Below, piece after piece: positions 1,922-3,112 of a DNA stretch of 6,883 bases (its first letter is position 1; the number at the start of each line of letters is the position of its first letter). The translations under genes and the position numbers were made by a program. Source of the stretch: a virus (Duplodnaviria > Heunggongvirae > Uroviricota > Caudoviricetes); IMG/VR virus record IMGVR_UViG_2690316142_000010. One strand, 5' to 3'. Below the pieces are notes generated by a model. That model was not told the DNA's origin, searched no databases, and worked only from the letters and a program-made list of their open reading frames with translations.

Positions 1922-2373
1922 ATGGTGAAATCAATGAAAACAAACACAGATGATGGGGCTAAAATTTACACACCACTTACCCTAAAGCTTTATGACTGGT
2001 GGGTTTTGGGAGTATCAAATCGGCTTGCATGGGGATGTCCTACAAAGGAACACCTTCTTCCACACTTTCTGGAACATTTAGGTAACAACCATCTGGATAT
2101 TGGTGTTGGAACTGGGTTTTACCTTACTCACGTACCTGAGAGTAGTCTGATATCTTTAATGGATTTGAACGAAGCTAGCCTGAACGCGGCATCTACAAGG
2201 GCTGGGGAATCAAAAATTAAACATAAAATTAGCCATGATGTTTTTGAACCTTATCCCGCGGCGTTACATGGTCAATTTGATTCCATTTCCATGTTTTACC
2301 TTCTTCACTGCCTGCCTGGAAATATATCTACAAAAAGCTGTGTAATACGCAATGCGGCGCAGGCCTTAACTGA
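1922..2373 (+). pseudogene. Class I SAM-dependent methyltransferase, 5' fragment (first ~150 codons), disrupted by the IS110-family segment
   Basis: Protein identical to the copy-B methyltransferase from residue 12 to ...NAAQALT, then the track ORF reads into antisense IS sequence (ESSIVRRCSS...), which is not a real C-terminus. Confidence 0.75.
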
Positions 2374-2964
2374 ATCTTCTATTGTACGACGGTGTTCGTC
2401 AAAAGCTAATTGTCGCCAGGGACTTTCGAATGAGTATTTGCTGAGCCAGCGTCGGTGTGCAGGGCCCCAATCTGCTCGCCCGACATAATGGACCCCATGA
2501 ACCAGAAGAAACGATTTCAGACGTTGCCTTGCATGCCGTAAATCATCGCGGGCAGATGCCCATGCCCGGGCCAAATCCCGGAATGCCTCATCTTCAATGC
2601 CGGGTACGTAGACAGCAGAAAGATCTCCTGCACGCAGTGAACGCACAAGTCTGATGGCATCACGGCGATCGGTTTTAACCCGCTCCCCCGGTTTTTTCGG
2701 GATAAGTGAGGGGGCGCAGACCATGCAGTCAAAACCGGATTTCACCAGCCGACGATAAAGTCCATAACCACAGGGCCCCGCTTCATAAACGATACTGACC
2801 TGCGATGACTTTGACCTGAGACGTTTACAAAGATTCTGAATATCAGTAGGTGATGTGCCAATTTTACCCATCAGTTCAACAGGTTCTGAATTGATAGCAT
2901 AAGCGACAGTAATCGATTCTTTGTGAACATCTAACCCGACGTACAATGTGTTATTGTTGTTCAT
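2305..2964 (-). pseudogene. IS110-family (DEDD) transposase, N-terminal ~196 codons only; C-terminal domain missing, frame runs into antisense methyltransferase sequence before the stop at 2305
   Basis: MNNNNTLYVGLDVHKESITVAYA... is the characteristic IS110-family N-terminus (LYVGLDVHK motif). GGAGG 5 nt upstream of ATG 2962-2964 (minus). Homology to copy B flanks shows IS-derived sequence stops at 2374. Expected full length ~330-400 aa. Confidence 0.8.
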
Positions 2965-3112
2965 GCTGGCCTCCGTGGTGGAAATACCGGGGTGTAGCAA
3001 CAGCTCACCCATGCGGCTCTGACAACGATGTTAACCCGCGTTAAATATCCCACGTTGGCCAGCATCTGTCTCACGGAAAGTCATACTGCCTTACATTGTG
3101 TCTGGTTCTTCC
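2374..3112. mobile_element. Truncated IS110-family insertion sequence (transposase 5' part plus ~148 bp non-coding end at 2965-3112)
   Basis: Boundaries set by where repeat copies A and B stop matching each other (2373/2374 and 3112/3113). ~739 bp is too short for a complete IS110-family element (typically ~1.2-1.5 kb). Exact IS terminus is not verifiable without ISfinder. Confidence 0.6.

Follow-up and report, generated by a model that had tools for sequence, protein, structure and literature searches.

What does a broken IS110-family element that lies at the junction of two repeats in prophage DNA still encode, and how did it get there? The stretch analysed here, called the window, comprises 6,883 nucleotides. 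The initial annotation, made from its sequence alone, had described a truncated transposase that forms chimeric reading frames with its neighbours, and had pointed to the retained non-coding end (2965-3112) as a possible source of a guide (bridge) RNA. We therefore determined the identity and the true ends of the element, the position of its guide RNA gene and the origin of the flanking repeats.

A megablast search of complete E. coli genomes with window 2250-3200 as query returned many matches with 100% identity over query positions 126-845, corresponding to window 2375-3094. The subjects were annotated as 'IS110-like element ISSso6 family transposase' or 'IS110 family RNA-guided transposase'. 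Alignment with intact ISSso6 from two reference loci (L001 and L002) displayed 720 identities in 720 positions (100%) between window 2375-3094, minus strand, and the 5′ part of the element. A BLAST comparison of the whole element with the window gave this single unbroken match and no other piece of ISSso6. Intact ISSso6 is ~1.52 kb long and consists of a left end of ~125 nt, the gene of a 375-aa transposase and a downstream non-coding region of about 265-270 nt. The window copy has the same left tip, subterminal repeat, 5′UTR and residues 1-197 as intact ISSso6 (E. coli enteroinvasive-type, Shigella sonnei plasmids), but lacks ISSso6 bases ~721 to the end. Gone with them are the catalytic half of the transposase (residues 198-375, including the Transposase_20 domain), the gene of the bridge RNA and the right end. 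By sequence, the IS110-family ORF of the window is a broken copy of the catalogued ISSso6, an ordinary and already known element. The comparison with intact copies named the parent IS and demonstrated that the fragment is truncated. The fragment and its methyltransferase side are composed of the following features:

2375-3089, minus strand: IS-specific sequence of the fragment, 715 bp from the 5′ end of the ~1.52-kb ISSso6 (720/720 identity and refinement by empty sites)
2375-2964, minus strand: transposase codons 1-196 plus 2 nt, DEDD/RuvC-like domain only (domain search, protein comparison)
2305-2374, minus strand: chimeric tail made up of orphan base 2374, 22 antisense methyltransferase codons and the stop at 2305-2307
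1922-2373, plus strand: truncated methyltransferase copy 1, X allele, 452 nt; the ORF continues to 2488

The ORF that bears the fragment spans 2305-3012 on the minus strand. Transposase translation starts at the ATG at 2962-2964, which has a GGAGG upstream, and the annotated start in L001 (position 3090) maps to window position 2964. Residues 1-197 of the window protein equal those of the intact 375-aa transposase and are followed by 22 residues from antisense methyltransferase sequence; residue 197 is preserved because the orphan base 2374 supplies a synonymous third position. The protein comparison confirmed the description of ~196 retained N-terminal codons that read in frame into antisense methyltransferase sequence up to the stop at 2305-2307. 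Methyltransferase copy 1 is cut after 452 nt and continues with 37 codons of antisense IS (ORF 1922-2488), and chimeric frames are indeed formed on this left, methyltransferase side of the fragment. At the junction, the methyltransferase sequence ...CTGA is followed by the orphan A at 2374 and the IS sequence TCTTC... with no microhomology.

The domain search identified PF01548 (DEDD_Tnp_IS110) at residues 9-153 of the window ORF (E 1e-11, 45 bits versus a cut-off of 29 bits), which together with the 100% match to ISSso6 bears out the assignment to the IS110 family. The intact ISSso6 protein contains PF01548 at 9-153 and PF02371 (Transposase_20) at 223-297; PF02371 was absent from the window fragment in the same search. 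With the NCBIfam model NF033542, the intact protein scored 272 bits, whereas the window fragment, at 114.8 bits, stayed under the 140-bit cut-off set for complete transposases of the IS110 family. On its domain content, the window copy is a fragment of an IS110-family member and not a functional member.

A first boundary, taken from two occupied copies, placed the tip at 3094 and gave an element of 1529 bp. It was revised with the empty sites L016, L017 and L005, the last of which is an uninterrupted copy of the window's own site. The bounds from the alignment of the two occupied copies (L001 1692-3220) exceed the true element by 3 bp on the left and by 6 bp on the right. At both occupied loci, the empty site exceeds the joined flanks by 9 bp, which read GTAAGCGCT. 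The three uninterrupted sites are GGCT-GTAAGCGCT-AACG, CACA-GTAAGCGCT-GAGA and CAAT-GTAAGCGAA-AAAG, while at occupied sites the left junction is ...GTA AG GCAGTATGAC... and the right junction is ...GTCATATC AG CGCT.... Comparison of these sites shows a deduced ISSso6 target of GTA-AG-CGCT, with the 2-bp AG core retained at both junctions. According to the empty/occupied comparison of the three loci, IS-specific sequence extends to 3089, the core occupies 3090-3091, and 3092-3094 (GTA, minus strand) belongs to the target. The site of the window copy, GTA-AG-CGAA, matches the target consensus at 7 of 9 positions. Intact ISSso6 carries a 14-bp subterminal inverted repeat at both ends, of which the left copy alone survives in the window; outside these repeats lie a left extension GCAG and a right extension ATC. 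The right side of the fragment is thus organized as follows:

2965-3089, minus strand: left-end non-coding region, the tnp 5′UTR (folds; no match to a guide-RNA model)
3072-3085, minus strand: left subterminal inverted repeat TATGACTTTCCGTG; the right-end partner is deleted
3090-3091, minus strand: core dinucleotide AG (CT on the plus strand), common to IS tip and target (empty/occupied comparison, three loci)
3092-3112, minus strand: native 3′ end of the tail-fibre-assembly (tfa) relic, comprising the left target half and upstream codons; non-IS, identical in L005
3091-3360, minus strand: tfa relic ORF, 89 aa, with native stop (Pfam Caudo_TAP, E 2e-26)

The IS boundary had been set at 3112 because the start of the repeat (3113) was taken for the IS end; the three pairs of empty and occupied sites move the tip to 3089-3091. 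Instead of ~148 bp, the retained non-coding end measures about 125-130 nt (2965-3089/3094). The minus strand at the tfa end reads ...GAC ACA ATG TAA. Since 3092-3112 and the tfa stop are native, being unchanged in L005, the tfa relic ORF is not chimeric: in place of the seven codons said to read into the IS, it contains zero IS-specific codons and ends at its own TAA at 3091-3093. An identical 89-aa tfa ORF adjoins the methyltransferase gene and ipaH in L029. The insertion site of the window copy overlaps the stop codon of the tfa relic, and the module of tfa relic and methyltransferase adjoins ipaH in enteroinvasive E. coli.

IS1111 elements were characterized by Durrant et al. 2024 as having short left and long right ends, long subterminal repeats and a right-end bridge RNA, and supplementary file 8 of that study contains the entry 'ISSso6 RE IS1111' (PMC11208160). 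The downstream non-coding region of IS1111-type elements is essential and encodes the seekRNA (Siddiquee et al. 2024; PMC11187229). The 14-bp subterminal inverted repeats of ISSso6 fall within the 7-17 bp of the IS1111 group, and its ends are short on the left and long on the right (~125 nt upstream versus about 265-270 nt downstream). In the supplementary identity matrix of Siddiquee et al., the ISSso6 transposase reaches ~20-24% in the first column block, which is assumed to be the core IS1111 cluster and in which ISEc11 reaches 32-41%. As the transposase identity is only ~20-24%, the IS1111 assignment rests on architecture and the table of Durrant et al. Like ISEc11, ISPa11 and ISKpn4 (PMC11187229), the parent ISSso6 has long subterminal repeats, short asymmetric tip extensions (6 and 3 nt, the core being counted left), a downstream structured RNA whose target-matching segments show an overlap at the core, and a right-end TTGACA placed to form a junction promoter. 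In contrast, the window copy is devoid of any downstream part.

IS621 and ISCro4 of the IS110 group, for which structures of recombinase and bridge RNA have been solved, belong to the same superfamily with DEDD RuvC-like and Tnp domains. A phmmer comparison with these structures gave weak matches, with E-values of 2e-5 and 3.5e-5, in residues 199-290 only, which are missing from the window copy. The 2-bp core of IS621 is reportedly CT; ISSso6 follows the same core logic, its AG reading CT on the other strand. Whereas IS621 has its bridge RNA upstream of the gene, within the left end, the guide RNA of ISSso6 is located downstream.

This position was deduced from ISSso6 and ten relatives taken from plasmids of Burkholderiaceae, Alphaproteobacteria, Enterobacteriaceae and Bacillus (33-74% protein identity). 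An inverted-repeat pair (9-14 bp, ATGAC-type) in the same layout as in ISSso6 was present in nine of the ten; no such pair was identifiable in L010. The left repeat of the relatives lies 50-110 nt upstream of the start codon and the right repeat ~250-290 nt downstream of the stop codon; for the Bacillus element the latter distance is ~445 nt. In ISSso6 the downstream region folds with -88 kcal/mol (z -4.1 versus shuffles), and in every relative it folds around a long closing stem. Nine downstream regions were aligned with MAFFT for covariation analysis, which yielded a five-helix structure of 28 pairs. In this structure 84% of cells are paired, compared with 36-46% when the partners are slid. 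Furthermore, 16 pairs are altered on both sides, and not one of 500 shuffles came up to the observed value of any measure. Single sequences show a sixth helix in the variable RNA portion; it is out of register in the MAFFT alignment and was omitted from the model. Among the relatives of ISSso6, a 73.6% identical element on the Burkholderia cenocepacia plasmid pBCEN1232 (L018, 49119-49640) comprises the left end and transposase residues 2-175; it directly abuts a PadR regulator gene and represents a second N-terminal-only stump in the ISSso6 family.

Segments of the downstream RNA match the right tip (6-11 nt) and the left tip or flank (5-7 nt) of the element that encodes it. Right tip and flank are echoed after the conserved hairpin, as ATATCAGCG in ISSso6, ATGAGAGC in L007, CATGAGAGC in L008, CATCGGAGTTT in L014 and CATATCAGTT in L011, and this segment varies in step with the tip groups of the relatives. 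The ISSso6 RNA holds AUAUCAGCG, which equals right tip, core and flank. Left flank and core are echoed upstream in the RNA (GTAAG in ISSso6; CACTAG, TTAGACC and CAGCAGA in other elements). With 5-7 nt these left-hand matches are short, and cross-comparison gives no element specificity for them. GUAAG and AGCGCU of ISSso6 lie on two sides of one internal loop and tile the 9-bp target with an overlap at the core. Target-tiling segments overlapping at the core are the pattern described for seekRNAs (PMC11187229). The GGCAG motif of the RNA, which resembles the left tip of ISSso6, was rejected as a guide candidate and regarded as structural, since it is conserved in relatives with different tips.

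Rfam release 15 contained no family for either end of intact ISSso6 (L001 1600-3320) at E<=10, and covarying downstream RNAs of the ISSso6 type seem to be unrepresented in that release. As Rfam had no usable model, we built a covariance model, R1, from the alignment of the downstream regions. R1 scored 111 bits in intact ISSso6, 92 bits in L015 and 89 bits (E 3e-19) in L010, a Sinorhizobium element outside the training set; the matches in L010 and L015 are located downstream of tnp on the same strand. In ISSso6 the RNA gene corresponds to L001 1784-1919, begins 44 nt past the stop codon and lies within the part deleted from the window. Altogether, these data show that the guide RNA of ISSso6 is encoded downstream of the transposase gene.

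Bridge RNAs of the IS110 group sit in the left end (PMC11208160), and if region 2965-3112 encoded one as in IS621-type elements, the remnant could still supply a guide. The left end in fact folds better than shuffled sequences, z being -2.2 for the sense strand and -4.1 for the antisense strand. However, this fold closes over the ribosome binding site, as expected of a 5′UTR, and 3092-3112 is non-IS sequence. The IS1111 layout with a covarying RNA downstream of tnp and the 'RE' listed for ISSso6 by Durrant et al. (PMC11208160) are likewise at odds with a left-end RNA. In a cmsearch of the whole window with filters off, the best R1 matches reached 5.5 bits (E ~1) at 2208-2303 and 3703-3798, in the methyltransferase repeats, and none fell in 2965-3112. 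Rfam gave no match in 2965-3112 on either strand when the window was searched at E<=1. The bridge RNA suspected there was thus detected by neither R1 nor Rfam on either strand, the guide-RNA region being deleted, and we consider a left-end bridge RNA extremely improbable.

The feature in the window is, with high probability, a recent and inert 5′ fragment of ISSso6, an IS1111-group IS with an RNA-guided DEDD recombinase. Its designation as a dead remnant holds, as it has neither a Transposase_20 domain nor a right end nor a guide RNA. We infer that the fragment can neither transpose nor provide a guide RNA, and that the retained left end represents the tnp 5′UTR and the left recombination site.

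This left end contains the core, the 4-nt extension (GCAG), the left subterminal repeat and ~100 nt of 5′UTR. Its fold is multi-branched, with a closing stem in which GCUGGCC (3057-3063) pairs with GGCCAGC (2965-2971), the latter standing directly before the AUG; the stem encloses the GGAGG ribosome binding site. The fold is kept in two Burkholderiaceae relatives, and its function is read from three related sequences with few compensatory changes. In this structure model, it likely occludes translation from read-through transcripts. In circular ISSso6, as read from sequence, the right-end TTGACA would be positioned 17 nt from the left-end CAGTAT, of which the window retains the CAGTAT half only. 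By analogy with ISEc11 (PMC11187229), the left end probably keeps the -10 half of a circle-junction promoter. On the minus strand, a consensus scan revealed no promoter-like site upstream of this end. The left-end UTR also has CGCGGGTTA(AC) at window 3030-3041, complementary to the conserved GTAACCC(G/A)CG block on the 5′ side of the downstream guide RNA; the same complementarity was noted in L006 between 625-633 and 1909-1917. It could reflect pairing between left end and guide RNA or a coincidence.

The fragment lies, as noted initially, at a repeat junction, between two copies of a 756-bp repeat:

1618-2373, plus strand: repeat copy 1, X allele, ompW/trp-side prophage remnant (4 differences from L003, 17 from copy 2)
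3113-3868, plus strand: repeat copy 2; together with 3095-3112 it has Y alleles early and X alleles from 3752

The copies are 97.75% identical, and 12 of their 17 differences fall in 3151-3249. L003 represents the X type, a single-copy locus by trpA and an ompW remnant in ST131-type genomes, to which copy 2 has 15 mismatches. In the X locus, the methyltransferase gene has a tfa 3′ relic on either side. Many E. coli genomes match window 52-2373 in a single piece at 99.6%. Window 3090-4125 is 99.7% identical to L005, the Y type, a module of an enteroinvasive-type strain in which a dinI-like gene is followed by the tfa relic, the methyltransferase gene and ipaH. When the three sequences were compared, Y alleles occupied 25 of 25 informative sites in 3095-3573, and X alleles were present from 3752 on. 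The window is therefore arranged as an X module cut at methyltransferase nucleotide 452, the IS stump, a Y-type tfa relic with the 5′ part of the methyltransferase gene, and an X-type methyltransferase 3′ part with downstream sequence. Because the copies carry different alleles, this arrangement points to paralogous prophage modules joined by recombination and not to a fresh duplication in place.

IS elements are frequent at duplication junctions, and the position of the fragment between the repeat copies would fit an origin of the 756-bp repeat in place through ISSso6 activity, either as a tandem duplication or as a duplication followed by deletion. However, copy 1 has 4 mismatches to L003 and copy 2 has 15, but copy 2 is 99.7% identical to L005. 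The left junction is internal to tnp, a place that is not cut by a DEDD recombinase acting at the tips, and neither a second IS copy nor a right end is present in the window. As the break at 2374/2375 is internal and not at an IS end, it was not made by the element's own recombinase. With this break and repeat copies of different alleles, the suggestion that the IS helped to generate the duplication is not upheld, and an origin of the repeat in place appears unlikely.

Alternatively, an older tandem of X and Y modules may have received ISSso6 between them, and one deletion may then have removed the 3′ part of the IS together with the end of the first methyltransferase gene. Such a history requires only one insertion and one deletion, the modules are very common across prophages (methyltransferase in 13,959 blocks), and the X locus already has tfa 3′ relics flanking the methyltransferase gene. 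It is nevertheless a possible but less likely course of events: no genome with an IS-free tandem pair was identified, and the X alleles from 3752 need an extra explanation.

In the history that we favor, recombination between paralogous modules, a complete ISSso6 would first have integrated at the tfa site by guide-RNA-directed recombination. A later illegitimate join, with no microhomology and one orphan base, would have connected mid-tnp sequence with codon 151 of a paralogous methyltransferase gene, and a homologous crossover within the methyltransferase gene (between 3573 and 3752) would have linked the two module types. Insertion, crossover and deletion may also have followed one another in a different order. 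A full ISSso6 at the tfa site, the state before the deletion, was not found, and no complete E. coli genome spans the junction of IS and tfa. Both junction strings were absent from the public genome and metagenome contigs searched, and exact look-ups of the three chimeric proteins in public collections found none.

Several other features of the window were recorded. Positions 1-51 are the terminal 51 bases of IS1, 100% identical to the ends of IS1A/IS1B, and abut the side of the ompW remnant; homology to IS-free E. coli genomes begins at position 52. Window 378-576 and 612-1184 contain an Rfam c4 antisense RNA (75.9 bits), a1/b1 targets and isrK, and then a Rha-family regulator gene. This region is taken to be a P1/P7-type immunity module kept in the prophage remnant. 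Rfam IS009 matched the tfa relics on the minus strand at 3134-3337 and 1639-1842 (129 and 111 bits; gathering threshold 117) and weakly at 4183-4262, so that this 'sRNA' model overlaps the 3′ part of tail-fibre-assembly coding sequence. A segment of ~72 bp precedes tfa 3′ relics at 1546-1617 and 4091-4161. Its copies are 89% identical, and the second one (4091-4161) is matched weakly and in part by the Rfam model of the Shigella sRNA CssrB (32.6 bits, far under the gathering threshold of 76 bits). The 222-aa methyltransferase (3417-4085) is identical in very many assemblies, as reflected by its 13,959 index blocks. Its neighbours in L020-L029 are invariably tfa genes or tfa relics, which belong to different prophages, and L029 also has an ipaH-type (LRR/NEL) effector gene next to it. 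The methyltransferase gene behaves like a widespread prophage moron. Farther downstream the window contains:

4284-4490, minus strand: N-terminal stump of a Pin/Gin-type invertase, 68 aa
4694-5455, plus strand: tail-fibre C-terminal segments
5458-5991, plus strand, and 6020-6583, minus strand: two opposed tfa genes

At 5303-5305 the tail-fibre frame contains an in-frame TAG, and the region from the invertase stump through the tail-fibre genes looks like a frozen invertible host-range segment.

Although dead, the stump retains an orphan left junction (GTA, AG, left tip and repeat; 3072-3094), and it is conceivable, if quite improbable, that the recombinase and bridge RNA of intact copies elsewhere in the same genome still recognise it in trans. 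If so, large chromosomal segments would be deleted or inverted under RNA guidance once this junction pairs with a right-end junction belonging to another copy, and the dead IS stump would be a latent programmable recombination site. In a weaker variant of this idea, the 219-aa chimera with only the RuvC domain may interfere with the tetrameric recombinase.

For the annotation of the locus, these results mean that the coordinates of the IS remnant should read 2375-3089/3091, that the tfa relic ORF is native and not chimeric, and that no bridge RNA is to be annotated at 2965-3112. The mosaic is a further example of recombination among near-identical modules of tfa relic and methyltransferase in Shigella/enteroinvasive E. 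coli type genomes. In IS110-family remnants, the surviving end decides whether a guide RNA is possible, so the subgroup, with IS110 or IS1111 layout, should be settled before such an RNA is looked for.
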